Notes: generated by a model not told the origin, from the letters alone. A stretch of 20,000 nt of DNA from an uncultured virus (IMG/VR IMGVR_UViG_3300028195_000003) (IMGVR_UViG_3300028195_000003); one strand, 5' to 3'. Positions 3,003 through 19,990 are shown, counted from the first letter of the stretch. Made by a program: numbers and translations.

Positions 3003-3329
3003 CTACCTGGACAACGCGACAGCAGCCACTCCCAGGCCGGCCAGGACGATGGCCGTGAGGTTGTCGCCCTTGAACCACAGCCCCTCGGCCCCGACACCGA
3101 CCTCGACGGAGTCGTCGTTGTAGCCCTCGGCACCGAAGGCGGGCTTCGTTCCCCGGAAGCCGGTGCTCCCGGACCTGGGCTCCATCAGACGCTCGTCGGT
3201 GGAGTCCATGTTGGGAACGAGCCCATAGGGCCTGGTCTGGTAGAGGTAGCCAAACTCATCGTCGGCCTCGAAGGGTGCGAGTCCTTCGAACCCTTCACCG
3301 CAGCCGCAGCAGCTCTTGTCACGCGCCAT
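3003..3329 (-). CDS. Small protein (108 aa) with C-terminal membrane anchor
   Basis: RBS GCAGGAGG. N-terminal CCGCG. Hydrophobic C-terminus LTAIVLAGLGVAAVALSR. Confidence 0.8.
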   Translation of the reverse strand: MARDKSCCGCGEGFEGLAPFEADDEFGYLYQTRPYGLVPNMDSTDERLMEPRSGSTGFRGTKPAFGAEGYNDDSVEVGVGAEGLWFKGDNLTAIVLAGLGVAAVALSR

Positions 3330-3331
3330 GT

Positions 3332-3628
3332 CTACCTCCTGCGGCGGCGCTTCTTTCCGCCCGCCGGCGAGATTTTCTTCAGGTCTTTCATCTTGAAGTG
3401 TCGTACAACAGCATAGCTGCTACCGAAGACCGCGCCAAGCAGCGCGGCCGTCATGAGCAGCTCCCCGGTCTGCACCCGGGCCCGCTCACCACGCTCTACT
3501 TCGAGCTGGTGAGCGAGTACCTCGACCGCTTCACGGGACGTCAGGTCTCGCAGCTGTGCCTCCCGGCCCCGGGAGGTTCCCATGACCGGCGCCCTGTGGG
3601 CTCCAGGTGCCGGTCGCTGCGAACTCAT
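3332..3628 (-). CDS. Small membrane protein (98 aa) with basic tail
   Basis: RBS-like CGGAG. Hydrophobic segment LLMTAALLGAVFGSSYAVV. Ends GGKKRRRRR. Tightly packed in the operon. Confidence 0.75.
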   Translation of the reverse strand: MSSQRPAPGAHRAPVMGTSRGREAQLRDLTSREAVEVLAHQLEVERGERARVQTGELLMTAALLGAVFGSSYAVVRHFKMKDLKKISPAGGKKRRRRR

Positions 3629-3655
3629 GAATGCTCCGTGTTCGGCGCCCTCCGG

Positions 3656-4972
3656 CTACCTGCCCTTCAGCAGGGCCACGATGGTCATGGCAGCCGAGCC
3701 GACCCCGATGATGGCGGGGACGGTGGGCAGCTTCCAGCCTTCGGCCGCGGGGGGCGCGATGGCGTCCGGCGCGTACTCCTGGGCGGGAGGCGCGTCGAAG
3801 GGGCCCATGCCTCCCTCTGCGGGGAGCGTGGCGGGGGCCGGGGCGGGGGCGGTGGTGAAGCGGTCGTTGACATAGAACAGACCACTGTTCCAGCCCTCGG
3901 TGATGGCTTCGGCCAGACCGTCGTAGGCGTCGATGAACTCCACCATGGAGAACGTCGCGCTCCTGATCTGATCCGCGGTCCAGCTCTGGGCCGCCTGCAG
4001 GTAGCCATCCGCCGTCTCGCCGATGACGGCACGGATGATGCCATCGAACCAGTCATCGGGCTCGGGCGCGGCGATCTCGGAGACCTGACGACCCACGACA
4101 GCCAGTGCGCCGGCGATGGAGTTCCGCAGGCAGTAGAGGTAGGCCGTCGCGTTGATCGCCTGCTCGTTGCTGGCAGGGTTGAAGCCCTGGACAGCGTCGA
4201 CGAAGTCGCTCGACATGGCCTTGATCATCTCCAGAGAGTTCTTCTTGGAGGCGGCCCAGGCCACAGCCAGCTTGGCTACGGTACCAGGGGTGCTGAAGAT
4301 ATCGACGAGCTGGTCGTCGATCCTGTCGAAGATCTCCGAAGCGGCACGGAGGCTGTCGTCGCCCTCACCGGGCAGCATCGCCGAGTACATGGCGACGCGG
4401 ATCATGGCGCGCTGGTCCTTGGGACCCTTGCTGTCCCACGAGGCGAACTTCGGCTGCGAGATGAGCTTGCGGAGGATGTCCTTGACCTCGCCCTCTGGGC
4501 CGAGGATGCCCTGCCAGTCCGGCTGCAGCCACCCGGGGATGTAGAAGGCGTTGACGATGTCCGCCACCCGGTCCTCGTTCACACACATCTTGGTGTGACC
4601 GTCGCAGAACATGTTTTCCTGGTCCGTGATGTAAGCCGTGGGCGCGACGGAAGGGTCGTTGCCGTAGTCCTCGTAGGCCGCGGCCGGCATGGTGCCGTAC
4701 TCGTCGTCATCGTCGAGCATCTCGTCCAGCTCGTCCTCGTCTTCGTCCGGGTCGTAGCCCTCGGGGGTCTCGTCCTCGTCGAAGTCGTCGGAGTCGTCCT
4801 CGTAGTCGTCATCGTCGGTGTACTCTTCCTCGTCCTCGAGGACGTCGTCGTCCAGGTCACCGAAGATGTCATCGGTGTCGTGGAGACCGTACTCCTCCTC
4901 AGCAGTGAGGACTGGACTGTTCAGGGCCCCGTAGAGCTCCTCGGCCGTCAGGATGTTGTCTTGCAGAGCCAT
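3656..4972 (-). CDS. 438-aa protein: very acidic N-terminus, helical core, Pro/Ala linker, C-terminal membrane anchor
   Basis: Start moved to ATG 4972 (MALQDN...) because ACAGGAG lies just upstream. C-terminus LPTVPAIIGVGSAAMTIVALLKGR. Confidence 0.85.
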   Translation of the reverse strand: MALQDNILTAEELYGALNSPVLTAEEEYGLHDTDDIFGDLDDDVLEDEEEYTDDDDYEDDSDDFDEDETPEGYDPDEDEDELDEMLDDDDEYGTMPAAAYEDYGNDPSVAPTAYITDQENMFCDGHTKMCVNEDRVADIVNAFYIPGWLQPDWQGILGPEGEVKDILRKLISQPKFASWDSKGPKDQRAMIRVAMYSAMLPGEGDDSLRAASEIFDRIDDQLVDIFSTPGTVAKLAVAWAASKKNSLEMIKAMSSDFVDAVQGFNPASNEQAINATAYLYCLRNSIAGALAVVGRQVSEIAAPEPDDWFDGIIRAVIGETADGYLQAAQSWTADQIRSATFSMVEFIDAYDGLAEAITEGWNSGLFYVNDRFTTAPAPAPATLPAEGGMGPFDAPPAQEYAPDAIAPPAAEGWKLPTVPAIIGVGSAAMTIVALLKGR

Positions 4973-5079
4973 TCGGAATCTCCTGTCTCGTCGGTTCGAA
5001 GGCATGACCCGGTCCTTGCGGGCCCTTTCGCCTTGCAGCGTATCACGAGCTGGTGTGGAAGGAAAGAGAAGGTGGTTGT

Positions 5080-5122
5080 CACGGAAAGAAAGAAGAGGTT
5101 GGAGCGATCGGGAGGATCGCTC
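5080..5122 (-). terminator. Putative intrinsic terminator/attenuator
   Basis: 8-bp stem GAGCGATC/GATCGCTC (5102-5122) at the stop codon, followed on the minus strand by pyrimidine-rich CTCTTCTTTCTTTCC. Confidence 0.45.
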
Positions 5123-6524
5123 AGCTGAGGGACCTGGCCACCAGGCCTACGCCAGCGACCACAGCCAGCACACCCAGGCCCAGGCCTGCGCCCATCTTCA
5201 GGGACTCGCTGAAGGTGCCAGGGGGCTTACTGTCCTCGCCGTAGCGCTCGAGCTCGCTGTCGTGGTGACGGGGAGCGTAGGTGGGCACCGTGGAGTGGAT
5301 GGAGCCGTAGGAGTCAGAGCCACCGAGCATGGACTTGGCGCCCTTCACCGAGTGACTGGCCATGTCGAGCACCTTCTGGACACGGTGAGCATCCCTAGAC
5401 TCAGAACCTGCAACCGAGCTCGCCCTGTTGATCAGGTCGTCAGCCGCATTCAGCTTGTCCATCACCGTAGAACCAGAAGGACGGCCACCAGAGGCGATCA
5501 GCTCAGCCCGGTGCTCCATCATCTTGTTGATACGATCCAGCCTATCCGAGCTTGGACTCTTGGCCATCAAAGCCTCGATCCTGCTATCGAGCTGGTCCAA
5601 CGACAGAGCGCCGTAGCCAGCACGACCCTGTCCCGGGCGCCTGTCGGCACCGATGCTCGCCAGATAGCGCCTGGTCACGTCCAGGTCCCGGTGGGCATCC
5701 TGGAGATCCACCCTGAGGCGCTCCTTGTCCAACGACGTGAGAACGATCTCGCCCCTGATCTTCGTACCGATCTGGGACAGATCATGCTGGACGTTGGTGG
5801 CATAGTCCCAGGCGTCGAACTTGCTCGGACGGGCGGGAGGTGGGGAATACTCACCGCCGTAGCGAGGGGCATAGGTGGGGACGACGTCGGCGAAGCCACC
5901 GAACAGGTCGTCGTTCTCGCTGGGGAAACGAATGCGATCCCGCTGCTCGTAGGACCGTCGCAGGGCCTGGTTCTGCAGTTCGCTGGAGGGCTCGTCCAGC
6001 AGACGCTCGATCTCGTCGTCGATCTCGGCGATCCGCTGGTTCATGACGTTCTTGTCCGCAACGGCTTCCTGCCCCTTGCGGATATGGCGCGCCATGCGCC
6101 TGCCCAGACGGGGCAGACCGGGGGTCATGCTCTCGGAGGAGAAGGCGGGCTCGGCGGGTCCGATGTCACCGAAGATGTCCTCGGAGTCCAGCTCGAAGTC
6201 GTCGATGGCGCCGAAGATGCCTTCCTCGACCACCTGCTCGGAGATCTGCTCGGCCAGCTCTTCGATGTTGAGACCGGAACCGGGCATGATTCCGCTCTCC
6301 TCATCGTAGCCACCGGAGAGATCCTCGTAACCAGAACCCAAGCCGGACTCATAGGCCTCGGCCATGGGCGAGACGGACTGCTGGGGCCGCTGAGGGCGCT
6401 GAGGACGCTGAGGACGACGAGGGCGATTGCTGACCCTTAGCTTACGGATCGACTTTGCCAGAGATGGAGCTCCGGAACCGCCCCTTCTTGCTGTTACCGA
6501 TCCACCGTAGAAAGCATCACTCAT
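5121..6524 (-). CDS. 467-aa modular helical protein with C-terminal membrane anchor
   Basis: RBS ACAGGAG. Basic PQR repeats, acidic tract, coiled-coil-like segments, duplicated VPTYAPR. C-terminus GAGLGLGVLAVVAGVGLVARSLS. Confidence 0.88.
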   Translation of the reverse strand: MSDAFYGGSVTARRGGSGAPSLAKSIRKLRVSNRPRRPQRPQRPQRPQQSVSPMAEAYESGLGSGYEDLSGGYDEESGIMPGSGLNIEELAEQISEQVVEEGIFGAIDDFELDSEDIFGDIGPAEPAFSSESMTPGLPRLGRRMARHIRKGQEAVADKNVMNQRIAEIDDEIERLLDEPSSELQNQALRRSYEQRDRIRFPSENDDLFGGFADVVPTYAPRYGGEYSPPPARPSKFDAWDYATNVQHDLSQIGTKIRGEIVLTSLDKERLRVDLQDAHRDLDVTRRYLASIGADRRPGQGRAGYGALSLDQLDSRIEALMAKSPSSDRLDRINKMMEHRAELIASGGRPSGSTVMDKLNAADDLINRASSVAGSESRDAHRVQKVLDMASHSVKGAKSMLGGSDSYGSIHSTVPTYAPRHHDSELERYGEDSKPPGTFSESLKMGAGLGLGVLAVVAGVGLVARSLS

Positions 6525-6527
6525 GGT

Positions 6528-7997
6528 TCACTCCTGTCCTTCGAGATCGAGATCGAGATCCTGCAGATCTTCGAGATCATCGTAGTCTTCTTCTTCCTGC
6601 TCGTCCAGCTCGTCCAGCTCCTCATCCTGCTCGTCCAGCTCGTCCGCGGCCTCCACCAGGGCTGCCATGGACTCGAGCTCTCGCTCTTCCAGAGCTGACG
6701 CGATCATCTCCACCCTGGACAGCGGGACGATGGCTCCGACCACACAGGTGCGGTCCAGGGCGCCCATGGCTTCCTTCTCCTCGGGATCGTCACGACGTTC
6801 GGCGACCCACTCCTTGATGTCGCCGGTCTTCTCGGCCTTCCACTCACTGAATCGCTTGGACGCCTCTGGGAACTTACCCTTGAGGACAGGACCAGCGGCA
6901 GAAGATACCGCGGAGATGAGCAGCGGAAGGAAGATGGCACCGTACCGCACACAGCCCTTGTACTCGGGCAGATCGGTCTTGGGAACCAGGATGGAACCGT
7001 TCCCATCACAGACCAGGCAGCTCTTACCCGCGCCCTTGGTGATGGAGCCGTACTCGACACGACTGCACGACGGGCAGGGGACGGGATGCAGCGCACCATG
7101 GACCTCGTCCACGATCTTTCCGCTGCTGTACACGATGGGCTGTGCGCCGGGATCCCTGACCATCGAGGCGCCCTCTGCTGGATCGACAGCCAGTAGCGCA
7201 GAGCGTCCGGACTTCAGGGACCTGTCCACCGCCTTCTTGGCGGACCTCGACGGCTGACGGCCGATGAACCCATGGGGTGTGGTCACCGACGCAGAGAAGC
7301 GGCTCGAACCCTTCAAGCCTTCGAAACGATCCAGACCAGAGCCGAGCTCATCCTGCGCCGCCATCGCGCCCTCATGGGCTCCGATGTCGTCAGCAACGTA
7401 GACAGGGGGAGCCTGCATGGCGTCGGCCACGATCGCGTCATCTCCAGCTGCAGCCTCTGGATCGATACCCTCGCGTACCCCGGAACCGGCCCGGTAGGCC
7501 AGATCCTGGACACCAGCGCCCTGCTCGAGACCGGAAGCCCCGGACAGGGCCGGAACGACCACATGCTTTCCGAGCGCGAAGATGCCCTTGCCGATGGCGG
7601 AGAAGAGGCCGGAGTAAGCAGCCTCGGCCTCACGCTCCGAGACGCCCGCGAACTTCAGCGCGTCCGTCACGCCCTGCTTGTACCCCTCACCGTAGCCGTC
7701 ACTCTCGGACAGCTTACCGGCCCTGGCATCCCGGACCCGGTTCGCCATGGAAACGCGGCCGAACGAGGTGACGCCGAGGGAGGGTCCCTCGTCGTCTTCC
7801 GTTAGAACCTGCTCGATCTCGTCGATGATGGCGCTCTCGTCGTCATCGTCTTCGACATCGTCGTCGACATCGTCTTCGCGCCCGGTCCAGTCGATATCGT
7901 AATCTTCGACGATGGAAGCAAGGGTGTCCATAGGACCGCTCTCCTGCATCAGCTCATCGAGCGTCCAGCCCTCGAGATCGATCCTGTCGTCAGCCAT
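6528..7997 (-). CDS. 489-aa acidic protein with amphipathic helices and a CxxC...CxxCxGxG zinc finger
   Basis: Start moved to ATG 7997 (MADDRID...) given ACAGGAG 8 nt upstream. CPSC...CLVCDGNG at ~6996-7076. Acidic termini. Confidence 0.85.
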   Translation of the reverse strand: MADDRIDLEGWTLDELMQESGPMDTLASIVEDYDIDWTGREDDVDDDVEDDDDESAIIDEIEQVLTEDDEGPSLGVTSFGRVSMANRVRDARAGKLSESDGYGEGYKQGVTDALKFAGVSEREAEAAYSGLFSAIGKGIFALGKHVVVPALSGASGLEQGAGVQDLAYRAGSGVREGIDPEAAAGDDAIVADAMQAPPVYVADDIGAHEGAMAAQDELGSGLDRFEGLKGSSRFSASVTTPHGFIGRQPSRSAKKAVDRSLKSGRSALLAVDPAEGASMVRDPGAQPIVYSSGKIVDEVHGALHPVPCPSCSRVEYGSITKGAGKSCLVCDGNGSILVPKTDLPEYKGCVRYGAIFLPLLISAVSSAAGPVLKGKFPEASKRFSEWKAEKTGDIKEWVAERRDDPEEKEAMGALDRTCVVGAIVPLSRVEMIASALEERELESMAALVEAADELDEQDEELDELDEQEEEDYDDLEDLQDLDLDLEGQE

Positions 7998-8097
7998 GGG
8001 ACCCACTCCTGTTGGCAGGCGTCGGACCCGGAGATGAAGTCCTCGTGACCAACGCCGTACCTTTCATGTACTCGAACCGAAGAAGATGGAACCTGTA

Positions 8098-9441
8098 CTA
8101 CCCCTGCCAGGTGAACTTGTACTCACCGGACTTGGGGTGCTGATAGCGGCCCGTACCGAGGGCCTCACCAGCCCTGGCCACGGCCTTGGCCTGCTTCTGC
8201 TGCAGCCCGTGGATCTCCGCCATGACACTGTCGGCCTTTTCGATCTTGCCGCGCTGAAGCAGGCGCTTGTGACGCTGCTGCAGGTTGGCGATGCGGCGCT
8301 GAGTGTCCTTGCGCAGGAGCTTGAGAGGGGTCCTCGGCGCACGCTTGGCGTAGGGCACGAAGCTGCCGTCATGGCGGGAGCGGCCACGACGGAAGAGCTT
8401 GCGACGGCGCTCATCGTCATCGCCAGCCTGGCTGATGGTGCTCGAAGGCGACGGGAGGTCGTCCTCTTCTTCGTCGAGGTCGATCGCCGCCATAATGTCT
8501 TCAGCTGACAGACCAGGGCCACGATAGCCCAGAGCGAGCTCCTCCTCGGCGAAGAAGTCATCATCGGTCACGGGCTGGTACTCGTACCCGAACACCGCGT
8601 CGTTCACGATCTCGAGGATGTCGCCATCGTCCATCAGCAGGTCACCGCGGACAAGGATGTCCTCGACCGGGCCACGGAACTGGCTAGCGTCGATGGTCAT
8701 GGCACCGAACTGGGAGCCGGCCCAGCGGCCACCGCCCTGAAGCTGCCCACCGACCATGTGACCTCCACGGGGTCTCGGTCCGCCACGGCGCATCATCGCC
8801 TTGTGCTTCGCCGCGGGTCCGCGCATGGCAGGCTTGCGGCGAACCGCAGGACGGCCACGAGGGGGAAGACGGCGCTGTCGACGGGGACCGCGGTAGGGGA
8901 AGGCCGGGATGTAGCGACCCGTGGTCAGCACCCTGGTCACGCCGGTCAGGCCGGAGCCGGTCAGGATGGCCGCAGCGGCTTCCTCCGTCTCCTTGGTCTT
9001 GCCGAAGTCACGCGGATCGTCGATGTCACCGTCGGCGAAAGCCTCGATGGCCCTCATGCGCGCCGCCAGGTTCGGGGCGCTCTCCTCGATGTAGTCCATC
9101 GCGTCGAAGTTCTTGCTGTGGATCTTCTGGGTGCGATTCCAGATCTTCACCATGCGCTTGGCCTTCTTGCGCGCCTTGTCGATCTTCTCCGTCTCGGCCA
9201 GGCCGATGATCTTGCCGTAGAGCTTCTCCAGCTTGCGGATCTTGCGCTTGGTGCGGAACTTCGGGAAGAGGCCACCGTAGACCTCGTCGTCGGAACCGTC
9301 GAAGGCACCGTAGACGGGGGTGATGGCGCCATAGCCACAGCCACGGTAGGCCGAGGTGGGCAGCGGGCAATCCACGCCGGGGGTTCCGAAGCCCTTGGTC
9401 GGGCCGTGGGGACTGTTGTATACGTCGTTCTGACCGTACAT
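8098..9441 (-). CDS. 447-aa protein with alternating basic and acidic blocks; putative nucleic-acid-binding core protein
   Basis: RBS ACAGGAG. K/R-rich tracts (RGPRRQRRLPPRGRPAVRRKP) alternate with D/E-rich tracts. Confidence 0.85.
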   Translation of the reverse strand: MYGQNDVYNSPHGPTKGFGTPGVDCPLPTSAYRGCGYGAITPVYGAFDGSDDEVYGGLFPKFRTKRKIRKLEKLYGKIIGLAETEKIDKARKKAKRMVKIWNRTQKIHSKNFDAMDYIEESAPNLAARMRAIEAFADGDIDDPRDFGKTKETEEAAAAILTGSGLTGVTRVLTTGRYIPAFPYRGPRRQRRLPPRGRPAVRRKPAMRGPAAKHKAMMRRGGPRPRGGHMVGGQLQGGGRWAGSQFGAMTIDASQFRGPVEDILVRGDLLMDDGDILEIVNDAVFGYEYQPVTDDDFFAEEELALGYRGPGLSAEDIMAAIDLDEEEDDLPSPSSTISQAGDDDERRRKLFRRGRSRHDGSFVPYAKRAPRTPLKLLRKDTQRRIANLQQRHKRLLQRGKIEKADSVMAEIHGLQQKQAKAVARAGEALGTGRYQHPKSGEYKFTWQG

Positions 9442-9512
9442 GTTCGCTCTCCTGTCCGTTCTGTTCCGAAGGTGTGATGCGGGAGGATTGTGCCCTGAGC
9501 GGGCGAAAAGAT

Positions 9513-11810
9513 CTACTCGTCGTCGCCCATGAACTCGCTGACACCGGCGAAGACCGCTTCGTCCATGTCGAACAGATCGTCACGATCGATGTACCCATAG
9601 TCATCCGGCAGGCCCGAAGCCATCGGCGCCGTCTGGGCGCCGGGCCCACTGGGGCGCTGGAAGCGCTGCGGGCCGTGGCGCTCTGGACGCTGCAGCTGCC
9701 CATCAGAGCCGCGGAGGAGGTTCTGGGTAGAGCGAGGACCGCGCTGGATACCTTGTCCCTGCCCCTGGCCCTGCTGACCGTGGCGCTGACCGGGACCCTG
9801 CTGGCCGAGACCACGCCGCTGACCGGGACCCTGCTGGCCCTGACCCTGCTGACCGCGGCGGAACTGGCCCCGCTGGCCGGGACCACGCCGCTGACCGGGA
9901 CCCTGCTGGCCCTGACCCTGCTGGGCACCACGCCTTGCCATGATGCGCTGGTAGGCGGGAGAGCCATTGGGCGGCCGATTCCCGGGCTTGCGGCGAGAGT
10001 TGGGACCGGGGCGCCTGCGACGACCCTGACCACCGCCCGTGGACGACGACACCTGCTGGGACGACGACATCTGAGACGACGAAGACCCTGGTGTGGCTCC
10101 TCCACGGAACCAGCGCAGCATCTCGCGAGCCTCGGAGCTGGGCTGCCAGCTGGAGTCCTTGCGCTCGAGCTTGGCCATGGTCCTCACGGCCTTGCCCATC
10201 ATGCGCTTGGCGATGTCCTCCTGACCCTTGTCCAGGTTCCTCTTGGCGTCCTCGATCAGCTGATCGAAAGCCGTGTCGGGAGTGAATACGCGGCTCAGGC
10301 CGCGACCAACCCTCACACCTCCGAGGATCTTGCCCTCGAACAGCTTGCCGTACTGGTCCTCATAGTAGTCACCCTGACCACCGTCATCGTAGCCCTGGTC
10401 GTACTCGTAGCTCTGATCGTAGCCGCCGTTCTCGGGCGGGCAGTCGACCTCGTAGCCTTCCTCGTCGACACAGATGACCTGCGGCTCGAGCTCCTGGGTG
10501 GAGACGTGCCGGATGATGACGTTCTGGCCACCACCAGACTGTGTCGAACCGCGAGAACCGCCACTGCGCTGCCCGGCACGCTGGGAGTGCTGCCTACGGC
10601 GGGAAGAGCTCTGCGAACGGGCCTCGGCCTTCCGGGTGCGCCTTCTGATGGTCCTGCGCTTGACCTGCGCCTTGTGGGCCTTCTTCGCTCTCTTCTTGGC
10701 GATCTTCCTGGCAATGCTGCCGGTCCCCAGATTGGTCCCCGTGGACGTGCTGCTGGAAGACCCAGAAGTCGAAGTCCGAGTCGTCTTCTGACGGCTCAAA
10801 ATCGCCTTCTTCTTGCCAGCCATCGCGCTCGACCGAGCCTGGGACGTCGCCTTCATCACGTTGAAGGCGCCGAACTCCTCCCCGAGCCCTTCATCAGCAG
10901 CCATCTCGTCCTCGTCCTCGATCGCCTCGGCGATCTCCGCGAGAAGGATGTCGTGTTCGGGATCGTCGAAGAGCCACTCGTTGACCAGAGGGCCGCTCAA
11001 GGTTCCGTAGTCTTCCATGTCATCCTCCAGGAGGTCGATGTCCTCCATGGCCAGGAGTTCTTCATCGAGATCTTCGTCACCGCCATCGATGGCGGGACCT
11101 GCCAGCGTGGGGAACAGACCATCGGCCACCATCTCCCCAACCAGCTTACCAGCGTCGTGCGCTGACGGGATGTCCACAGCCTCGCGGACACCCTCTCCGA
11201 TTGCGCGTGCGATGCTCGACACGCCACCGGCCCCAAGCCCGAGGCCTTCACCGAAGGCCCGGGTCACGTCTCCGATCTTTCCGTATTCTTCTTGCATGTC
11301 TTCCTTGCCTCTCAGTGCACCATACCCTTCTACATGGGTGGTTGGCATCCCCGCCTTCGCGGATGGGTCTCTCAGCTCGTATCCCTTCACCCCTGGCGCC
11401 ATCAAGGCACCAGGCCAGCGCTCAGACGCCTGACGTCCATAGCTGGAAGAACCGACCGGATCGGCCGTCACGACATGGAACAGGCCGTCCTTGGGCGAAT
11501 AGGCGAACGGGTGCGACTGCACCTTGTCCTTCACACGGCGCTCGGCAGCCAGCCAGCAGGCCAGATCCTCACAGTCCGAATGACTGACACCGTCACTATC
11601 GATCTCCTCGAGCATCTCCCGGATGGTCTTCCAATGCTCCTCTTCGTCCCGCTGTCGGTACTTGACCTCGCCCGAGGCGATGCGATCGTGCAGCGACGGC
11701 TCCAGCCACTGCGGGTTGTCGCGCAGCTGCTGGATGTCCATGGCGAGGAGACCATAGAGCAAGCCCTTGGCCTCCGTTCCGGTCACCTTGAAGGTAGGAT
11801 TGATCGCCAA
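9513..11810 (-). CDS. 765-aa protein: N-terminal transglutaminase-like (papain-fold) Cys-His-Asp domain plus long low-complexity acidic, basic and Q/G-rich tail
   Basis: TTG start with CAGGAG RBS. Motifs SDCEDLACWLAAE (Cys80), FHVVT (His112) and RDPSAKAGM (Asp148) fit transglutaminase-like catalytic order. Confidence 0.82.
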   Translation of the reverse strand: MAINPTFKVTGTEAKGLLYGLLAMDIQQLRDNPQWLEPSLHDRIASGEVKYRQRDEEEHWKTIREMLEEIDSDGVSHSDCEDLACWLAAERRVKDKVQSHPFAYSPKDGLFHVVTADPVGSSSYGRQASERWPGALMAPGVKGYELRDPSAKAGMPTTHVEGYGALRGKEDMQEEYGKIGDVTRAFGEGLGLGAGGVSSIARAIGEGVREAVDIPSAHDAGKLVGEMVADGLFPTLAGPAIDGGDEDLDEELLAMEDIDLLEDDMEDYGTLSGPLVNEWLFDDPEHDILLAEIAEAIEDEDEMAADEGLGEEFGAFNVMKATSQARSSAMAGKKKAILSRQKTTRTSTSGSSSSTSTGTNLGTGSIARKIAKKRAKKAHKAQVKRRTIRRRTRKAEARSQSSSRRRQHSQRAGQRSGGSRGSTQSGGGQNVIIRHVSTQELEPQVICVDEEGYEVDCPPENGGYDQSYEYDQGYDDGGQGDYYEDQYGKLFEGKILGGVRVGRGLSRVFTPDTAFDQLIEDAKRNLDKGQEDIAKRMMGKAVRTMAKLERKDSSWQPSSEAREMLRWFRGGATPGSSSSQMSSSQQVSSSTGGGQGRRRRPGPNSRRKPGNRPPNGSPAYQRIMARRGAQQGQGQQGPGQRRGPGQRGQFRRGQQGQGQQGPGQRRGLGQQGPGQRHGQQGQGQGQGIQRGPRSTQNLLRGSDGQLQRPERHGPQRFQRPSGPGAQTAPMASGLPDDYGYIDRDDLFDMDEAVFAGVSEFMGDDE
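9750..9925. repeat. Coding tandem repeats (QQGQG/QGPGQRRG)
   Basis: Exact 43-bp duplication at 9809-9851 and 9881-9923, plus partial copies. Confidence 0.9.
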
Positions 11811-11863
11811 GGCGAACTCCTGAAGTGCGGTCGATGAGACGGAAGACGTCGATGCCGTAGCAC

Positions 11864-11891
11864 CCGCGGAGCCCTCTACAGGGCTCCGCGG
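11864..11891. terminator. Perfect 12-bp stem-loop after the 406-aa gene
   Basis: CCGCGGAGCCCT-CTAC-AGGGCTCCGCGG. It has no U-tract, so it may be an mRNA-stabilising or processing hairpin rather than a terminator. Confidence 0.55.
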
Positions 11892-11901
11892 AGCTCACCT
11901 A

Positions 11902-13122
11902 CTACGTGAAGATGACCGTGCACTGGTCGCTCTGTGCGACCGCCATGCCCACTCCGACCGGGTGCGGGACACCCGCGCTCTCGGCGTGGACATAGACCGT
12001 GCTGGCACCGGCGCCGTTGTCGTTGATCTCGACGTTGACGAGGCCCGTTGCGTCGGTCCTCACCGCACAGCGGTTGGTGTTGTCACCCGCCACCATGGTA
12101 CCGACACCGCCACCCGAGATGCCGTTGAACTGCACCACACCGGCCAGGTCCACGTCACCCGCGTTGAGGGTGTCCGAGATGACCAGGACCAGGTTGTGGA
12201 TTCCGGCCAACGGAGCGCCCGAGGAGTCGGTGACCTGCACCACGATCGAAGCGTCTGCGGGAGCGACGGCCGTGGCATCGGGGATGTCGACCTTGGCGGA
12301 CAGCAGGGAGCTGTCCCCACCACCGCTGGCGGAAGGGGTCTCGAAGGCGGCCCAGTCTCCGGTGTCGTAGCCGATGAAGAAGGTGCCAGAGTAGTTGGTG
12401 GTGACACCGGCCATGCCGCCGTTGTCGTACATCTGGATACGGATCTGCGACATGCCGCCCAGATCGACGCACATCGATCCGCCCATACCCAGGATGTGGG
12501 GCTGAGCCGCAGCGGTGATGAAGACCGACTGGTTCAGATCGGCCCAGGTGGTCCCGCCATCGGCGGATCCCTGGATGCGGATGCCGAAGCGTGTGACACC
12601 GTCCAGAACGACCGTGGGGATGCTCCCCGCGATCGTCACCTGACGAACGCCCTTGGGACGCCCGAAGGCCGTGCTGTTCGTGACGACACCGCCACGGACG
12701 ACGGCGATCTGCTGGACGGCACCCTGGCCATCGTGCATCACGCCACCGACGCCCACGGCGAGGGTGTAGGTGTTGGGCCCGACCCCGGTGTCGACAGTCC
12801 GAACCCGGAGGTGGGTGTAGCGACCGACGCTGGCCCAGCCGCCGGAACCGAAGTTGATGACGTACTGGTCGGCGGCCGTGGTCATGTAGTCCGCGACGTC
12901 CATCTGGGCGACGGTGTACCAGTTCGTGCCGTCCACGGTCCCCTCGAGGACCATACCGACGATGCTACCGGCGACCGCACTGAGCACGCCGGTCACGGAG
13001 ACGAGGAACACACCGTTGGGACGGGCAATGGCTGCCGAGGTAGCGGCACCATTCGTCAGGTTCGTCGAGAGCAGCTGAACCTGAGTGTACCCGAAGGTGT
13101 TGGGGGAGTGAAGTGTCTGCAT
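11902..13122 (-). CDS. 406-aa all-beta protein: two tandem homologous beta-sandwich domains plus Ig-like C-terminal domain; candidate spike/vertex protein
   Basis: Start moved to ATG 13122 (MQTLHS...) with AAGAGGG upstream. Internal repeats LEGTVDGTNW / IQGSADGGTTW. VQVTDSSGAPLAG...TDATGLVNVEI resembles bacterial Ig-like (Big_1-type) domains. Confidence 0.82.
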   Translation of the reverse strand: MQTLHSPNTFGYTQVQLLSTNLTNGAATSAAIARPNGVFLVSVTGVLSAVAGSIVGMVLEGTVDGTNWYTVAQMDVADYMTTAADQYVINFGSGGWASVGRYTHLRVRTVDTGVGPNTYTLAVGVGGVMHDGQGAVQQIAVVRGGVVTNSTAFGRPKGVRQVTIAGSIPTVVLDGVTRFGIRIQGSADGGTTWADLNQSVFITAAAQPHILGMGGSMCVDLGGMSQIRIQMYDNGGMAGVTTNYSGTFFIGYDTGDWAAFETPSASGGGDSSLLSAKVDIPDATAVAPADASIVVQVTDSSGAPLAGIHNLVLVISDTLNAGDVDLAGVVQFNGISGGGVGTMVAGDNTNRCAVRTDATGLVNVEINDNGAGASTVYVHAESAGVPHPVGVGMAVAQSDQCTVIFT

Positions 13123-13165
13123 GGCTGTTTCCCTCTTACGGAAAAGTGTGGTCTGTTGAACGACA

Positions 13166-13197
13166 ACAGGGCCGGGGAGCAAGCTCCCCGACCCCGT
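13166..13197 (-). terminator. 14-bp GC-rich hairpin with CUUG tetraloop downstream of the candidate capsid gene
   Basis: Minus strand ACGGGGUCGGGGAG-CUUG-CUCCCCGGCCCUGU. Its two G-U pairs form only on the minus-strand RNA. Confidence 0.65.
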
Positions 13198-13248
13198 GAA
13201 CCCTGTGGTCGCTTATAGGCGAGGTCGGGGTCGCCGAAAGTTGGCGTC

Positions 13249-14046
13249 CTACCTTGCGTATGCGCCGGGGAGACCGGGACCGAAGGCGTCGTCACGGAGG
13301 ACTTCGCACACGACCGAGACCATGGCGTACACACCGACCGCGTTGAGGCCGGCACCCGTGGGTGCGCTGCAGGCCGCGGTGAGCAGGGCGGTGTTCGGGG
13401 CGATCAGGATGGGGTATGCGCGCAGCCCGGTGAACTGCTCCTTGTCGGTGTCGTAGTCGTCCATCAGGACCCAGTCCTCGACGAGGAACAGGTTGGGCGA
13501 ACCGCCGATGCGGAAGTCCTGCATCAGACCGAAGCTACCGCCGATGGCGGCCAGGGTCTGGGTGGTCAGACCCACGATGCGCAGCACGGCCCAGTTGATG
13601 CTCTGGGTGACCCAGGCCTGGTTGGCGCCGATGCCCGGCACGGCGGCCGCGGGGGTGAGCAGCTCGTGCATGGGGTTGGTCGCGCCAGCGACGACGAAGT
13701 TGATGGGGACCAGCCGACCGGAGCCCGGAGGGGCCACCGAGGACTGACGCAGGCCCTGCATGGCACCGTCGACGTTGTGGTCACGGATGACCTGGGGGCC
13801 GAACTCGTGCTCGACGACGTCCATGCCGCGGATACCACTGGAGGCGAGGCCACCAGCGACGCCGGGGATGGAAGCTGCGGCGAGGGCGGCGCCCTTCTTG
13901 GCGGCGCTCTTCGCGATCAGCGTGTCGCGGAGCTGCATGAGCTTGTTGATGCGGCTGAGGCGGAGACGAGTGGGCTTCTTCGCGATCAGGGTCTGGATGC
14001 GGGTGTTGAGCTTGTCGAGGGTGACGGCTCCGTAGCTCTCGGACAT
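13249..14046 (-). CDS. 265-aa protein: basic helical N-arm plus ~155-aa beta-rich domain; candidate (single jelly-roll-type) major capsid protein
   Basis: Strong RBS ACAGGAGG, second gene of the operon, followed by a strong hairpin. The CDS is secure; the capsid role is inference. Confidence 0.75.
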   Translation of the reverse strand: MSESYGAVTLDKLNTRIQTLIAKKPTRLRLSRINKLMQLRDTLIAKSAAKKGAALAAASIPGVAGGLASSGIRGMDVVEHEFGPQVIRDHNVDGAMQGLRQSSVAPPGSGRLVPINFVVAGATNPMHELLTPAAAVPGIGANQAWVTQSINWAVLRIVGLTTQTLAAIGGSFGLMQDFRIGGSPNLFLVEDWVLMDDYDTDKEQFTGLRAYPILIAPNTALLTAACSAPTGAGLNAVGVYAMVSVVCEVLRDDAFGPGLPGAYAR

Positions 14047-14142
14047 GATGTCCTCCTGTCCCGAGGGATGTTGTACTGAGAAGGGTTGAGTGACGTGTTG
14101 ACTTGTGTCAGGAATCGAAGGAAGGGACTGAACTAGGCCCTA

Positions 14143-14532
14143 CTAGCGGGCCCAGGCACCCTGCTTCACGCGGGAGGGCTGAGGCAGAGCGCCGTACTCG
14201 GCGTTCCAGTCGGGGAGCAGCTTGGCCTTGTCAGCCACGCCCGGGTTCTTGTCCTTGGCCAGCTTGTAGCGAACCAGCTCGGTGGAAGCGAGCGAGGCCA
14301 GCATGGCGACGGAACCGATCTGCAGGACGTTCTTGGCGTCCTTGTTCTTGACCCAGAAGGAGCCCAGGCCCATCAGCGCGCCACCGAGGAGGCGGACGTC
14401 GAGGATCAGGGAGTCGTCCTTGAGGGACATGCGGAGGCTCTGCTTGCCTTCCTTGGGCTTGCGAGCGGCGAGGTAGGAAAGGGCGCCAGCTCCTGCGATG
14501 GTGCCAGCGGCGCTCCAGGCGTCGAATGCCAT
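14143..14532 (-). CDS. Small membrane protein (129 aa, 2-3 hydrophobic helices); first gene of the operon
   Basis: RBS ACAGGAG. Hydrophobic segments WSAAGTIAGAGALSYLAA, VRLLGGALMGLGSFWV and VLQIGSVAMLASLAS. Tandem TAGTAG stop. Confidence 0.85.
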   Translation of the reverse strand: MAFDAWSAAGTIAGAGALSYLAARKPKEGKQSLRMSLKDDSLILDVRLLGGALMGLGSFWVKNKDAKNVLQIGSVAMLASLASTELVRYKLAKDKNPGVADKAKLLPDWNAEYGALPQPSRVKQGAWAR

Positions 14533-14645: not shown

Positions 14646-14738
14646 GTCGATCCTCGCGATCGGGCCGATCGTAAAGTTTTTTTCAAAAGATGTTTTTCAC
14701 TAAACGAAAGACCAGGTTCTACGGTCAGATAGACAACA

Positions 14739-14768
14739 TTGCACCAATAAACGTGGGTACGTTATACT
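14739..14768 (+). promoter_or_regulatory. Candidate sigma70-like promoter for the plus-strand cluster
   Basis: TTGCAC-N18-TATACT in the AT-rich intergenic region. A second candidate, TTGATC-N17-TATTTT, lies at 14867-14895. Confidence 0.45.
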
Positions 14769-14923
14769 CAAACAATACAGCTACAACCAACGCACGTGCC
14801 ACGAAAATGCCAGAGAAAAAAAATATCCACAAGCATAAACCGAACGAAGCTTTTCTCGGCCAGCACTTGATCTTCCTGCCATATGGGCATATTTTCAAAA
14901 CAGGAACAAAAAAAGGACACCAC

Positions 14924-15976
14924 ATGCAAGGAAGAGAGCTCGGAGAGACCAAGGCCGTCACCAGCGAAGGACGCCTGTGCTTCGACTGCGCCTACCCGGT
15001 GATGGACAAGAACGTCGCCGTGTGCCCCCGATGCCACTCACAGGATCTCGACGATCGCCGGTCCAGGCCCAAAAAGACGGAGCCGCGCTTCGCTCCAACA
15101 CTGCCGTTCCCGTGGCACACCATGCGCTTCGAGCTCGGTGGAACGGGGCTGATCTCTGGAGGGCCGGGGAGCGGCAAGACCACAAGCACCATGAAGATGG
15201 TCCCCACGAGGTTCTTGACCTCGGAACAACACCCCGAGAAGGTCGGCCAGCTCTTCTACCGCCTCTACCCCAACGGGACACCGCCCCTGATCTCTAGCGT
15301 CTCGAGCTGGGAACACCTCGCCGATGACCTGATCGGCCTGAACGAGGACGACCTGGTCATCGTCGACTCCATCAGCCAGCTGTCCGCGCCTCACATGTCC
15401 GGGAGGATCGTCGGAGAATGCATCCAGATGGTCCAGCAGAGCTCCGCGAGATGCTGGTTCATCGCGCAGTTCACCAAAGATGGAAGCATGCTCGGACCCA
15501 ACGAGCTGAACCACCTCGTGGACGCCGTCGCCAAAATCCCCGCCGACAACCTCGGGATGAGACGGCTCATCCTGGAGAAGAACCGCTTCGGGAAACTCAC
15601 CAGCACCTACTTCGCCATCGGCGACTCGGGTATCATCGAGCCACACTTCACCTACGCCTACAGCGTCGAAGGTCCCGCAGGCAACTACCGCCTCAACATG
15701 TACCCGATGAAGAGAGGTGCAGCCTTCGCGGGCATCTTCTCCAGCCTCGAAGAAGCCGGTGTCGGCCCCCTCGAGGGCTTCGCGTCCGCCGCGATCCCCT
15801 CCGGCATCTACCGAACCGGCTTCGCCGAACCCGACGACGCGAACATGAGACGACAGTTCGCAGAAGCCCACGGACTCGAGTGGCTCACACCACAGACCGC
15901 CATCGAATGGATCGCCGATCCGGAAACCGCACAGCAGCACCTCGTCGAGAGATCGGCACGGATGTTCGCAGCATAG
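14924..15976 (+). CDS. RadA/Sms-like RecA-superfamily ATPase (350 aa) with N-terminal C4 zinc finger, lacking the Lon-like C-terminal domain
   Basis: Start ATG 14924 with AAAGGA RBS. Motifs: CFDC...CPRC, Walker A GGPGSGKTT, Walker B LVIVDSISQL, FTKDGSMLGPNELNHLVDAV and the RadA signature KNRFG. Confidence 0.85.
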   Translation: MQGRELGETKAVTSEGRLCFDCAYPVMDKNVAVCPRCHSQDLDDRRSRPKKTEPRFAPTLPFPWHTMRFELGGTGLISGGPGSGKTTSTMKMVPTRFLTSEQHPEKVGQLFYRLYPNGTPPLISSVSSWEHLADDLIGLNEDDLVIVDSISQLSAPHMSGRIVGECIQMVQQSSARCWFIAQFTKDGSMLGPNELNHLVDAVAKIPADNLGMRRLILEKNRFGKLTSTYFAIGDSGIIEPHFTYAYSVEGPAGNYRLNMYPMKRGAAFAGIFSSLEEAGVGPLEGFASAAIPSGIYRTGFAEPDDANMRRQFAEAHGLEWLTPQTAIEWIADPETAQQHLVERSARMFAA

Positions 15977-17713: not shown

Positions 17714-18481
17714 ATGCGCAGAGACAACCCATTCACGATCACCGTAGGCACCAGCGGAGAGGTCCTCGTGCCACTCTGCTGCGCCAAGCGCAACACCGCG
17801 CCCATGCTCACCATCGGCCCGGACTACGAGACCCACAACTTCAGGGTCTTCGCCAAGATGCCGAGCAGATCCGACGCGGAGAGGCTCGCGGCACCTTTCG
17901 GGTATGACCGCGGCACCGTGACCTTCGACGTCCAGTGGCTGATGCTCTACGGTGAACTCCCCGCAGGGCTGACCGCCAAGTTCTACAGCGTCTCCGCCAA
18001 GGGTGTAAGCGGCAAGATCCAGAAGCACGACATGCACGCCTGGACGCACAACGACAAGACGGGGAACTACCCATCCGTCAAGATCGAGATCCCACTCCTG
18101 AGCCCCGGGGGCTGGATTAGCATCGAAGGCGTCTCCAGGTTCTACACCCCGAGAATCAGAGATAGAAAAAAGAACCTACTCCCCGTCTTCGCCCCCGTCC
18201 CCGCCGAGATGCCGAAGGTCGAGCAACACATCCTCGTACCACTCCAGCTCATCGCCAGGCTGCACCATCTGCCAACCATGAAGAACGAACCGAGAGTCCA
18301 GGTGGTCAGGGGGAGCCCCTTCGATCATGCCAGGCCTGCTCACTCGCCCCCAAGCGGCCCGGAGATCATGGGAGGAGAGCCCCCGCCAAGCCCCTTGAAC
18401 TCCTCGGGCTCCGACACGCCGACATCCGGAGCGTCACCGAGCCCGGACGCCATCCATAGCCGAAGAAGCCCTGAGAGCTGA
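17714..18481 (+). CDS. Hypothetical protein (255 aa)
   Basis: ATG 7 nt after the previous stop. Its P/S-rich tail overlaps the 3' end of the convergent hydrolase gene. Confidence 0.7.
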   Translation: MRRDNPFTITVGTSGEVLVPLCCAKRNTAPMLTIGPDYETHNFRVFAKMPSRSDAERLAAPFGYDRGTVTFDVQWLMLYGELPAGLTAKFYSVSAKGVSGKIQKHDMHAWTHNDKTGNYPSVKIEIPLLSPGGWISIEGVSRFYTPRIRDRKKNLLPVFAPVPAEMPKVEQHILVPLQLIARLHHLPTMKNEPRVQVVRGSPFDHARPAHSPPSGPEIMGGEPPPSPLNSSGSDTPTSGASPSPDAIHSRRSPES

Positions 18482-19812
18482 CGGATCGATCGACTCGCCG
18501 AGCTCTTCCCGTACTCCACCCTGGTCAACGTCGACGACGCCCTCCCAACCGACAAGAGGGTCTCCAGCCTCCCCTCCGACATCGCCCACCTGTCCAGCGC
18601 CATGCAGTAGGAGACGGCATCCGGGTCACCGTCAATGGCACTACCAACGCTGGCCCACAGGTAGGGGTCCGCACATGTCCAGCGCAACAGCCTCGCCCCG
18701 ATCTCCGGGTCGAGCCTCAACACGACCTCACCGCCTTGACCGGGGTGAATCGCTGGACCGTCGACGATGCCCGTACCTCCCCACAGGTGGGTGATCGCCA
18801 TCTTGACGAGCCGCGAGACGTTCCTCGACGCCCACATGTGATCCCGACCGATCAGATCGGTCGCATCGATCCCGTGGATATTCTGTAGCTTGACATGAAT
18901 CGGACCGAGGCCAGCGGCAGGGGTTTCATCGGAGGAAACCCCTCGCGGATAGATGTGCTTCAGCACCAGATCACGCCTCGAATAGACGTTGATGATCCGG
19001 CCCATGGACTCGGCACCGTCCCATGCCCCTGGACTGTCTCCGACGGCTGCCGAGATGAGAACAAGGTTCACCAGAGGGCTCGAGACCTCCTGACAGGCCT
19101 TCCATGCGATCAGCCCACCGAGGGAGAACCCGACCACGAGAACCCGACGTCCAGCGTCCGTCCAGCGACGGATCCACCTGGATAGGTACTTGGAAATACC
19201 CAGAGCAGACAGCCTGGACTTTGTCCAGCGAGCTCGCAGCTCTTCACCGACCTCGAGCAGGTGGCCGAGTGTCTTCGGGGCGTCACCCTCTGTCCACGGC
19301 AACAGCTGTGCGTCGTACCGAAGCACGAAGGTCGTATATCCTGTGATCTCACTAACGATTTCCCATCGAGAAGGCGGAGTCCGTGCCGACCCGAAGCCAG
19401 AGATACAGACCGCGATGTCCCTGGTGCCCTCCGCGAGCTCAACGAGCCCCTCGGTCCCGTCCTCGTTGACGTCGAAGACGATAGAGAGAGGGAGCTGTGA
19501 CGAAGGATCCTGCTCGCCCGGACCGCTCTCGTCCTCGTAGACCTCGGGATGGTGATCGTCGAGATCAACGAACCCGGAGCCGTAGACGTCTCTGTCCTGG
19601 GACTCAGTCAAGGGCGAGCTCCTATCAGCGGTGCTGCCGTAGCCTACCATGATGCCGCTGACCCCACCAGTATGTCCACCCGGGAGGATGTCAGACCCCT
19701 CTTCTGTGGATCGATCCTCACGATCGATCGGCTCACCACGGATTCCGGTGGAGCCTTCCTTCGCCCGTTCACCCTTCCCACTAGCGAGCGTCAGCCGAGA
19801 CTCAGTCGCCAT
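18340..19812 (-). CDS. Alpha/beta hydrolase (DUF726-like, putative lipase/esterase) with acidic disordered N-terminus
   Basis: AVCISGFGS oxyanion-type strand, nucleophile elbow VVGFSLGG, INVYSRRDLVLKHIY...AAGLGPI, and GRDHMW (candidate catalytic His). Start site uncertain. Confidence 0.8.
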   Translation of the reverse strand: MATESRLTLASGKGERAKEGSTGIRGEPIDREDRSTEEGSDILPGGHTGGVSGIMVGYGSTADRSSPLTESQDRDVYGSGFVDLDDHHPEVYEDESGPGEQDPSSQLPLSIVFDVNEDGTEGLVELAEGTRDIAVCISGFGSARTPPSRWEIVSEITGYTTFVLRYDAQLLPWTEGDAPKTLGHLLEVGEELRARWTKSRLSALGISKYLSRWIRRWTDAGRRVLVVGFSLGGLIAWKACQEVSSPLVNLVLISAAVGDSPGAWDGAESMGRIINVYSRRDLVLKHIYPRGVSSDETPAAGLGPIHVKLQNIHGIDATDLIGRDHMWASRNVSRLVKMAITHLWGGTGIVDGPAIHPGQGGEVVLRLDPEIGARLLRWTCADPYLWASVGSAIDGDPDAVSYCMALDRWAMSEGRLETLLSVGRASSTLTRVEYGKSSASRSIRQLSGLLRLWMASGLGDAPDVGVSEPEEFKGLGGGSPPMISGPLGGE

Positions 19813-19866: not shown

Positions 19867-19990
19867 TTCCACCACCCCGCGCCACCACCAAGCATCGCCC
19901 TTTGTTCCACCCTTTGTTCCACCACCCCGCGCCACCACCAAGCATCACCCTCTGCATCACCCTCTGCATCACCCCCTGTGCCACCACCAA
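19867..19990. repeat. C-rich array of nested ~12-bp direct repeats
   Basis: 30-bp exact repeat at 19867-19896 and 19917-19946; CCCTTTGTTCCA x2 (19898-19921); GCATCACCC(T/C)CT x3 (19942-19977). Confidence 0.85.

Follow-up and report, generated by a model that had tools for sequence, protein, structure and literature searches.

Our analysis of a 20,000-nucleotide stretch of DNA from an uncultured virus (IMG/VR IMGVR_UViG_3300028195_000003), referred to as a whole as the window, revealed that unrelated proteins of its minus-strand operon share a two-residue motif, Tyr-Gly or Phe-Gly ([YF]G), far beyond compositional expectation. The protein of the window that is richest in Tyr-Gly (YG), g765 (7 YG, 9 [YF]G), is fused to an enzyme domain of the transglutaminase fold with an invariant Cys-His-Asp triad. 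We tentatively favor a reading in which this N-terminal enzyme, which would be carried on a scaffold/core polyprotein, cleaves at maturation sites that have [YF]G as their core.

The excess of the motif is evident within the operon itself. The first-pass annotation of this DNA had counted about 27 YG dipeptides over eight operon proteins; we found exactly 27, in 8 of the 10 minus-strand proteins encoded between positions 3003 and 14532, and all 18 peptides that it quoted are present in these proteins. The individual counts are given in Table 1, with g426 and g98 lacking YG. Only 11.1 YG are expected from the composition of the ten proteins, and the observed number was reached by none of 1,000 shuffles, whether residues were shuffled over whole proteins (mean, 11.2) or within 20-residue blocks (mean, 12.8). 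While the predicted enrichment of YG therefore stands, YG alone does not describe the motif, since Phe-Gly (FG) is raised as well (21 versus a shuffle mean of 11.2; 2 of 1,000 shuffles reach 21), and we define the motif as [YF]G (48 versus 22.4; 0 of 1,000). The reverse dipeptide G[YF] shows no excess (26 versus 22.0, with 208 of 1,000 shuffles reaching 26). An extended pattern, [DE].?[YF]G[ASTGK][LIMFV], which was defined after the data had been seen, occurs 17 times versus 0.5 expected. As the annotation had noted, three tandem paralogs on the same strand are nearly free of the motif (1 [YF]G versus 7.7 expected). In the five non-operon proteins of the window, YG occurs 8 times versus 4.4 (58 of 1,000 shuffles reach 8) and [YF]G 12 times versus 8.6 (127 of 1,000 reach 12); the acidic tail of the non-operon protein p416 contains four Tyr residues, none of them followed by Gly.

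Related elements repeat this pattern. Twenty metagenome loci were fetched, and their open reading frames were called mechanically, so that a few starts may be wrong. An independent set of 38 motif-bearing proteins from 13 loci, which excludes the window and its close relative L001, contains 318 [YF]G versus 117 expected (YG, 129 versus 48.5; FG, 189 versus 68.9), compared with 136 versus 143.7 for Leu-Gly and 10 versus 22.5 for Trp-Gly. Position-by-position enrichment over the same 13 loci places Asp or Glu at position −2 in 47% of sites, Ala directly after the Gly in 26%, and Leu, Ile, or Met at the next position in 32%. In the tails of 37 representative g765 homologs, clustered at 50% identity, [YF]G occurs 272 times versus 94.9 expected, the maximum of 500 shuffles being 124. 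Among all 20 X-Gly pairs, only those with Tyr (3.3-fold) and Phe (2.6-fold) are raised, whereas G[YF] reaches only 1.1- to 1.3-fold and Trp-Gly is depleted (0.34-fold). No control shows an excess: the same elements' replication-side proteins contain 31 [YF]G versus 39.6 expected, and the corresponding values are 40 versus 45.7 for 15 members of the g426 family, 35 versus 65.2 for the body of the capsid protein, and 10 versus 24.7 for 10 members of the paralog family, the last three counts coming from related, nonindependent sequences. One short motif is over-represented in several unrelated particle proteins.

The sites are also kept in place. When five proteins (g765, g447, g492, g467, and g449) are compared between the window and L001, 29 of 35 [YF]G are retained, as opposed to 816 of 2,580 other dipeptides (31.6%; Fisher P = 8e-10), which bears out the positional conservation that was to be examined in homologs; g447 alone keeps 8 of its 9 sites. 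At 33 of the 35 sites, the position before Gly remains aromatic, versus 62 of 111 cases otherwise. Identity peaks on Y/F (0.86) and G (0.83), with flanks at 0.4 to 0.8, a profile suggestive of purifying selection on just the two motif residues. Two ideas about placement that came with the first-pass annotation fared less well. The first site lies within 15 residues of the N terminus in 12 of 48 motif-rich proteins, versus 12.7 expected, and the proposed position at switches in composition is not borne out by net charge, which averages −1.9 in the 12 residues before a site and −1.1 after it (Wilcoxon P = 0.31; n = 35). An N-terminal position holds for the families of the capsid protein, g447, g467, and g449, not over all 48 proteins. 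We have rejected a clustering at protein ends as a general rule; only the C-terminal site of the g765 family and the ends of the capsid protein stand out.

The domain that had been singled out at the N terminus of g765, with its Cys80, proved to be real. His59, Asp79, Cys80, Glu81, Asp82, His112, and Asp148 are invariant in 21 sequences, and residues 1 to 155 are the only part of g765 conserved across the family. A structural model of the domain (predicted local distance difference test [pLDDT], 84; predicted template modeling score [pTM], 0.82) matches transglutaminase-fold enzymes only, namely LapG, PeiP/PeiW, TgpA, and true transglutaminases, and it shows the expected core, in which a helix that begins with the catalytic Cys packs on a beta-sheet. 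The fold matches listed include no adenain or Ulp1 chain, which does not by itself exclude that family. At the sequence level, Pfam Transglut_core (PF01841) matches neither the window domain nor 14 close relatives even at an E value of ≤10, nothing relevant came from scanning 15 aligned enzyme domains against Pfam or from searching the PDB with a profile, and Pfam Peptidase_C93 (PF06035) matches neither g765 nor the 15 aligned N-terminal domains. A distant homolog, P0196, has a weak PF06035 match (E = 0.0096; 16 bits versus a 27-bit cutoff) in a different part of the protein. When 1.84 billion representatives were searched with a profile of the domain, 258 proteins were recovered, about 36 of them long with the domain at the N terminus and the rest mostly small (120 to 320 residues). 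PF01841 touches 4 of 43 distant homologs scanned, one of which (P0105, 24.2 bits) exceeds the 23-bit cutoff, and PHROGs gave no match for 42 distant homologs. In 109 small distant homologs the Cys is kept in 107 and the His in 82 of the 85 aligned, while Asp148 is not alignable. Because of the fold matches and the conservation of Cys80 and His112 across homologs, sequence and model together indicate that residues 1 to 155 are an enzyme of the transglutaminase fold, with Cys-His(-Asp) residues, that is under selection; the fold itself does not specify the bond attacked. The operon encodes this enzyme, of a fold that includes proteases, together with the candidate substrates.

Several sites are arranged in a suggestive manner around this enzyme. 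A conserved [YF]G or F-x-G follows directly after the domain, at residues 163 and 176 in the window. The remainder of g765 is a long disordered region with acidic, basic, and Gln/Gly-rich parts; strongly basic Arg/Lys stretches occur in both g765 and g447, and Gln/Gly/Arg repeats occur in g765. At the other end, 29 of 37 g765 homologs have a [YF]G 13 to 31 residues from the C terminus, versus 11.6 expected for this range, which was chosen post hoc, and the site precedes a conserved acidic amphipathic helix (in the window, ...DEAVFAGVSEFMG).

Two further features of g765 are recorded here as side observations. A 72-base tandem repeat (9759-9923; 2.2 copies, 89% match) encodes its Gln/Gly/Arg-rich repeats, and these repeats, together with the Lys-rich stretches, have a composition that would also suit a transglutaminase substrate. 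In three related loci (L006, 5846-6166; L010, 10773-11168; L012, 4549-4803), a separate small gene follows the g765 homolog, and the C-terminal end of its product is the ...EDG[VI]xxGFxEF helix with which the fused protein terminates elsewhere; this suggests, from sequence, gene fusion or fission within the family. These small proteins were not alignable to g765 when compared with the [YF]G positions of the fused protein.

The probable capsid protein, g265, carries the motif at both ends. Its N-terminal ESYG (YG at 14029-14034) is followed by a helical hairpin, which occupies the first 50 residues in the model, then by a beta-sandwich predicted to be a jelly-roll-type domain, and finally by a C-terminal DDAFG (13279-13293) and PGLPGAYAR. 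Among 59 family members, the first 14 residues include [YF]G in 50, and the last 20 include [DE]x[YF]G in every case. The hairpin recurs in g467, whose residues 304 to 354 (5463-5615) copy residues 5 to 55 of g265 (13882-14034) with 47% identity (BLASTP E = 9e-13), and the alignment begins at YG in both proteins; the L001 homolog of g467 is without this segment. A distant relative of g265, P0064 (349 residues), apparently contains the capsid-type domain twice, with both the LRDDAFGPG and GGSPNL motifs repeated, and from its sequence would look like a step towards a double jelly roll. The small protein g129 has a conserved C-terminal [YF]GA[LM]P (YG at 14191-14196) before a tail ending in ...AWAR, and about 10 of 15 aligned family members keep the C-terminal [YF]GA. 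The C termini of g129 (14143-14200) and g265 (13249-13293), which are unrelated proteins, have the same signature, namely [YF]G, 8 to 15 residues, and G-A-[WY]-A-x-R (...AEYGALPQPSRVKQGAWAR and ...DDAFGPGLPGAYAR), and it is kept in most members of both families (relatives L002 to L019). This shared G-A-[WY]-A-x-R terminus might serve as another terminal signal or be set free as a C-terminal peptide. Hydrophobic anchors end g467, g449, g108, and their relatives, and the acidic N-terminal part of g449 contains repeated vLTAEEeYGaL units (4820-4972).

We therefore propose the following scenario for how the motif may be used. The [YF]-Gly pair would occupy positions P2 and P1 of the cut sites, so that the bond cut would lie after Gly, with Asp or Glu two residues before and often Ala and then Leu, Ile, or Met after. 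The Cys80-His112-Asp148 enzyme, acting as a protease at these sites, would free itself at residues 163 and 176, just past its own domain. It would dice acidic spacers from the basic stretches, the latter probably DNA binding, clip off the short C-terminal docking helix, and trim the ends of the capsid protein and of the small membrane proteins. This reading gains support because the motif excess repeats in independent homologs while the controls of the same elements are flat or low, because the enzyme is fused to the most YG-rich protein and conserved sites follow its domain, because the two motif residues are kept far better than other dipeptides, and because the capsid protein has the motif at both ends and the module that it shares with g467 begins exactly at YG.

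A number of points weigh against it. Cleavage is something that we infer from sequence and fold. The best fold matches, PeiP and PeiW, are cell wall isopeptidases, with equal scores for true transglutaminases, and a role as maturation protease is therefore not a necessary one; the window domain, moreover, matches no Pfam family. An invariant [YF]G (residues 124 and 125) lies inside the enzyme domain, between His112 and Asp148, and another, at residues 19 and 20, is in a confidently predicted helix of the domain. The C-terminal site of the capsid protein is followed by Pro, and a cut at the Met-Tyr-Gly with which the g447 family begins would remove just three residues. There is no general preference of the sites for protein ends and no charge switch. 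Finally, the sites are packed as closely as 19 in 574 residues in some homologs, which would suit multivalent binding as well.

This last point leads to the alternative that survives best, although we consider it somewhat unlikely, in which the acidic-context [YF]G is a docking tag and no cleavage takes place. In this scenario, a short linear motif in many copies would be bound by a single folded partner, which might be the capsid lattice on its inner face, the capsid hairpin, or the enzyme-like domain serving as a binding module, and internal and membrane proteins would be recruited to the particle and held there through it. Many repeats do lie in disordered acidic stretches, such as the tandem LTAEEeYGaL units of the g449 family, reaching up to 19 sites per protein, and sharp conservation is confined to two residues, as is seen for binding motifs that occur in repeats. 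The motif stands at the extreme N terminus (MYG) of the g447 family, where the MYGQ start is common to the relatives in L010, L011, and L012. The capsid protein, moreover, has it at either end, where lattice contacts are often made in capsids, and YG is the start of the capsid hairpin module that recurs in the membrane-anchored g467. However, a docking tag leaves unexplained why a conserved catalytic Cys-His-Asp enzyme is fused to the most motif-rich protein of the window, its partner is postulated, and the depletion of the motif in the folded bodies of particle proteins fits a harmful cut site somewhat better than a binding motif that does no harm. The precedent offered by phage T4, in which short N-terminal sequences target proteins to the capsid, points both ways, as these targeting peptides are themselves cut off (PMC7411985). 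Docking and cutting are hence not mutually exclusive, since the T4 peptides first dock and are then removed.

An improbable alternative keeps the enzyme and the motif apart. The enzyme would then be a particle-borne cell wall peptidase for entry or lysis, resembling PeiP and PeiW, which are of phage origin, and the motif would be a separate signal for docking, secretion, or a host factor. The fold matches allow for such a role, as stated above; a PDB profile search found no sequence similarity between PeiP/PeiW and the window domain. In the cleavage reading, the enzyme would differ from these pseudomurein endoisopeptidases, which cut a cell wall isopeptide bond and not protein linkers.

Quite improbable is the view that the aromatic-Gly pairs are cohesive "sticker" residues that drive self-association in the absence of any receptor, producing a condensate or gel-like core or scaffold. 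Analogues would be the FG repeats of nucleoporins and the [G/S]Y[G/S] repeats of FUS-type low-complexity domains, and the many irregularly spaced sites in low-complexity acidic or Gln/Gly-rich stretches beside strongly basic ones, as well as the interchange of Tyr and Phe across lineages, would suit it. What speaks against it is the strict direction of the motif ([YF]G, 2.6- to 3.3-fold, versus G[YF], 1.1- to 1.3-fold, and Trp-Gly, 0.34-fold), the preference for Asp or Glu at −2 and for Ala and then Leu, Ile, or Met after Gly, and the single, positionally fixed sites at the ends of folded proteins, and because of these three properties we favor a defined pocket that recognizes the motif. That the motif arose by chance, or from composition or codon usage in a 64% G+C genome, is for practical purposes ruled out: even though some disordered regions do contain Tyr, Phe, and Gly together and the extended motif was defined after the fact, neither shuffling scheme reached the observed count in 1,000 trials, the excess repeats in independent homologs and is absent from replication-side proteins and the reverse dipeptide, and the sites are kept far better than their surroundings.

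Returning to cleavage at [YF]G, the closest parallel is the adenovirus protease (AVP, or adenain), which cuts capsid and core precursors at Gly-containing consensus sites, such as IVGL|G, and a Met-Arg-Gly-Gly substrate (PMC4246237). There, too, one virus-encoded cysteine protease serves several unrelated particle and DNA-condensing core proteins through a short Gly motif, and, like the AVP sites, the motif of the window is common to capsid, membrane, and strongly basic proteins. Unlike AVP, the window enzyme has a transglutaminase-like fold, its putative sites are aromatic-Gly instead of Gly-Gly, it is fused to a substrate-like protein, and its cleavage activity is a proposal; the host, judged from Shine-Dalgarno sites, is prokaryotic. 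With respect to the site itself, a likeness is found in the porcine arterivirus PRRSV, whose nsp1beta papain-like cysteine protease is described as cutting Trp-Tyr-Gly|Ala-Gly-Lys (PMC10379836) and, in cis, 383G|A384 (PMC12115618). The Tyr-Gly core and the Ala that follows it correspond to the favored [YF]G-A of the window. The PRRSV cut is a single one in cis in an RNA virus replicase polyprotein, unlike the many sites considered here, and the likeness is one of site.

The architecture of g765 recalls the herpesvirus assemblin-scaffold and phage protease-scaffold fusions, in which an N-terminal protease is joined to a scaffold whose C-terminal tail binds the capsid protein. The assemblin-type tail is clipped about 25 residues from its end by serine proteases of HK97-fold viruses, and the [YF]G that most g765 homologs have shortly before their C-terminal amphipathic helix would be placed in a similar manner. 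The window differs from these systems in that its enzyme has a Cys-His-Asp triad and its capsid protein a jelly-roll-type domain. A shared code is also found in phage T4 and giant phages, which, unlike the probably tailless virus of the window, are tailed and use serine proteases, and whose cleavage motifs end in Glu and are not [YF]G. As reported in PMC7411985 on T4 gp21 and giant-phage prohead proteases, many head proteins share one cleavage motif, and N-terminal peptides of about 10 to 20 residues target internal T4 proteins to the prohead core before they are removed. Among transglutaminase-fold enzymes, LapG is a site-specific protease that cuts LapA at a di-alanine motif (PMC10990149). 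LapG and the BTLCP family (bacterial transglutaminase-like cysteine proteinases; MEROPS C93) resemble our proposal in combining a Cys-His-Asp enzyme of this fold with a two-residue site, and LapG is among the fold matches of the window domain. The LapG motif is a different one, its role is cellular and periplasmic, and, as noted, the window domain has no Peptidase_C93 match.

Taken further, the cleavage reading would describe an uncultured prokaryotic virus lineage with jelly-roll-type capsids and an internal membrane that matures in an adenovirus-like fashion through a transglutaminase-fold cysteine protease cutting at aromatic-Gly. Maturation would include the freeing of basic DNA-condensing peptides from acidic spacers, the release of a docking helix, and the trimming of capsid and membrane proteins. 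We regard this wider picture as conjectural and, for the present, doubtful; if true, virus maturation would gain a protease family and a site code that are both new. No report of a transglutaminase fold in virus maturation was found among the literature matches listed for phage capsid maturation and tailless, membrane-containing phages. If the tag does mark cuts, a tailless prokaryotic virus would employ proteolytic maturation with a shared site code, and the way in which bacterial or archaeal viruses are assembled would be connected to the logic followed by adenoviruses and large DNA viruses of eukaryotes. A two-residue code would also predict the boundaries of mature proteins and the packaged proteins in a virus group that lacks gene annotation. 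If the tag serves docking instead, it would be a compact, portable signal for loading proteins into capsids.

The best explanation of the minus-strand operon, in our view, is that it forms the particle, or late, module of an uncultured prokaryotic virus, bacterial or archaeal. The virus is probably tailless with an internal membrane, which is suggested by the combination of a jelly-roll-type capsid protein and many C-terminal membrane anchors; no tail, portal, or terminase genes were seen in the window. The minus-strand genes (Table 1) form a tight array, and most operon genes have (A)CAGGAG 6 to 9 bases upstream of the start codon, from which we judge that the host translates like a bacterium or archaeon. 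The true start of g492 is probably the ATG of codon 4 (7995-8006), behind AACAGGAG, and that of g426 is possibly Met21 (13120-13182). None of the 13 operon proteins matched Pfam, PHROGs, or NCBIfam.

Table 1. Features of the window and positions of their coding sequences or parts
Feature	Position	Strand	YG	FG	Description
g129	14143-14532	−	1		129-residue small hydrophobic protein
g265	13249-14046	−	1		Probable capsid protein
g426	11902-13182	−	0		Beta-rich structural-type protein
g765	9513-11810	−	7	2	Enzyme domain, long disordered region, and acidic C-terminal helix
g765, enzyme domain (residues 1-155)	11346-11810	−			Transglutaminase-fold cysteine enzyme
g765, Cys80 codon	11571-11573	−			Invariant
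g765, His112 codon	11475-11477	−			Invariant
g765, Asp148 codon	11367-11369	−			Invariant
g765, C-terminal site and tail	9516-9599	−			Last [YF]G (9594-9599) and 26-residue acidic amphipathic C-terminal tail
g447	8098-9441	−	5	4	Starts MYGQ; acidic N-terminal part; strongly basic stretches
g492	6528-8006	−	3	1	
g467	5121-6524	−	5	3	C-terminal membrane anchor
g449	3656-5005	−	4	1	Acidic N-terminal part and C-terminal membrane anchor
g98	3332-3628	−	0	1	Small; one hydrophobic segment, basic tail
g108	3003-3329	−	1	2	Small; hydrophobic C-terminal anchor
Three tandem paralogs	1899-2924, 804-1889, 1-945	−			[YF]G-poor; the last runs off the window
RadA/Sms-like protein	14690-15976	+			N-terminal zinc ribbon and RecA-type ATPase; heads the second module
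Alpha/beta-hydrolase	18340-19812	−			DUF726 match (E = 3e-11); conserved beside the module in several loci

A 157-base gap, in which we found no promoter-like site, separates the minus-strand operon from a divergent second module. The RadA-like ATPase at its head matches PDB 5lkm (E = 1.5e-6) and TIGR00416 (E = 2.7e-7) and shares 41 to 69% identity with its counterparts in related loci; the module otherwise comprises three unknown proteins and the alpha/beta-hydrolase of the DUF726 family, which is mainly eukaryotic. No tRNA was found in the window. Homologs of g265 number 65 in metagenomes, on contigs of up to 385 kb, and the longer loci share the gene order of the window on both sides of the divergent gap. 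Relatives were found neither in IMG/VR nor in 185,579 species genomes, and tblastn searches of deposited phage genomes gave no match for g426 (E ≤ 1e-3), for the N-terminal domain of g765 or g265 (E ≤ 1), or for two small distant enzyme homologs. Among 16 proteins encoded in the flanks of related loci, only a RadC-like domain was recognized and no virus hallmark.

Some minor observations concern the remainder of the window. Its G+C content is 62 to 67% over most of its length. In the tandem paralogs (1-2924), the reverse dipeptide G[YF] is raised (15 versus 7.7; 6 of 1,000 shuffles reach 15), mostly from conserved GGGF/Y and DGY positions that are counted three times. Between positions 15000 and 19000, where the plus-strand genes lie, the plus strand has a strong excess of A over T, with an AT skew of up to 0.38. 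A Pro/His-rich open frame at the right end (19867-19990) contains two repeats, one a 50-base tandem repeat (2.5 copies) and the other of 12 bases.

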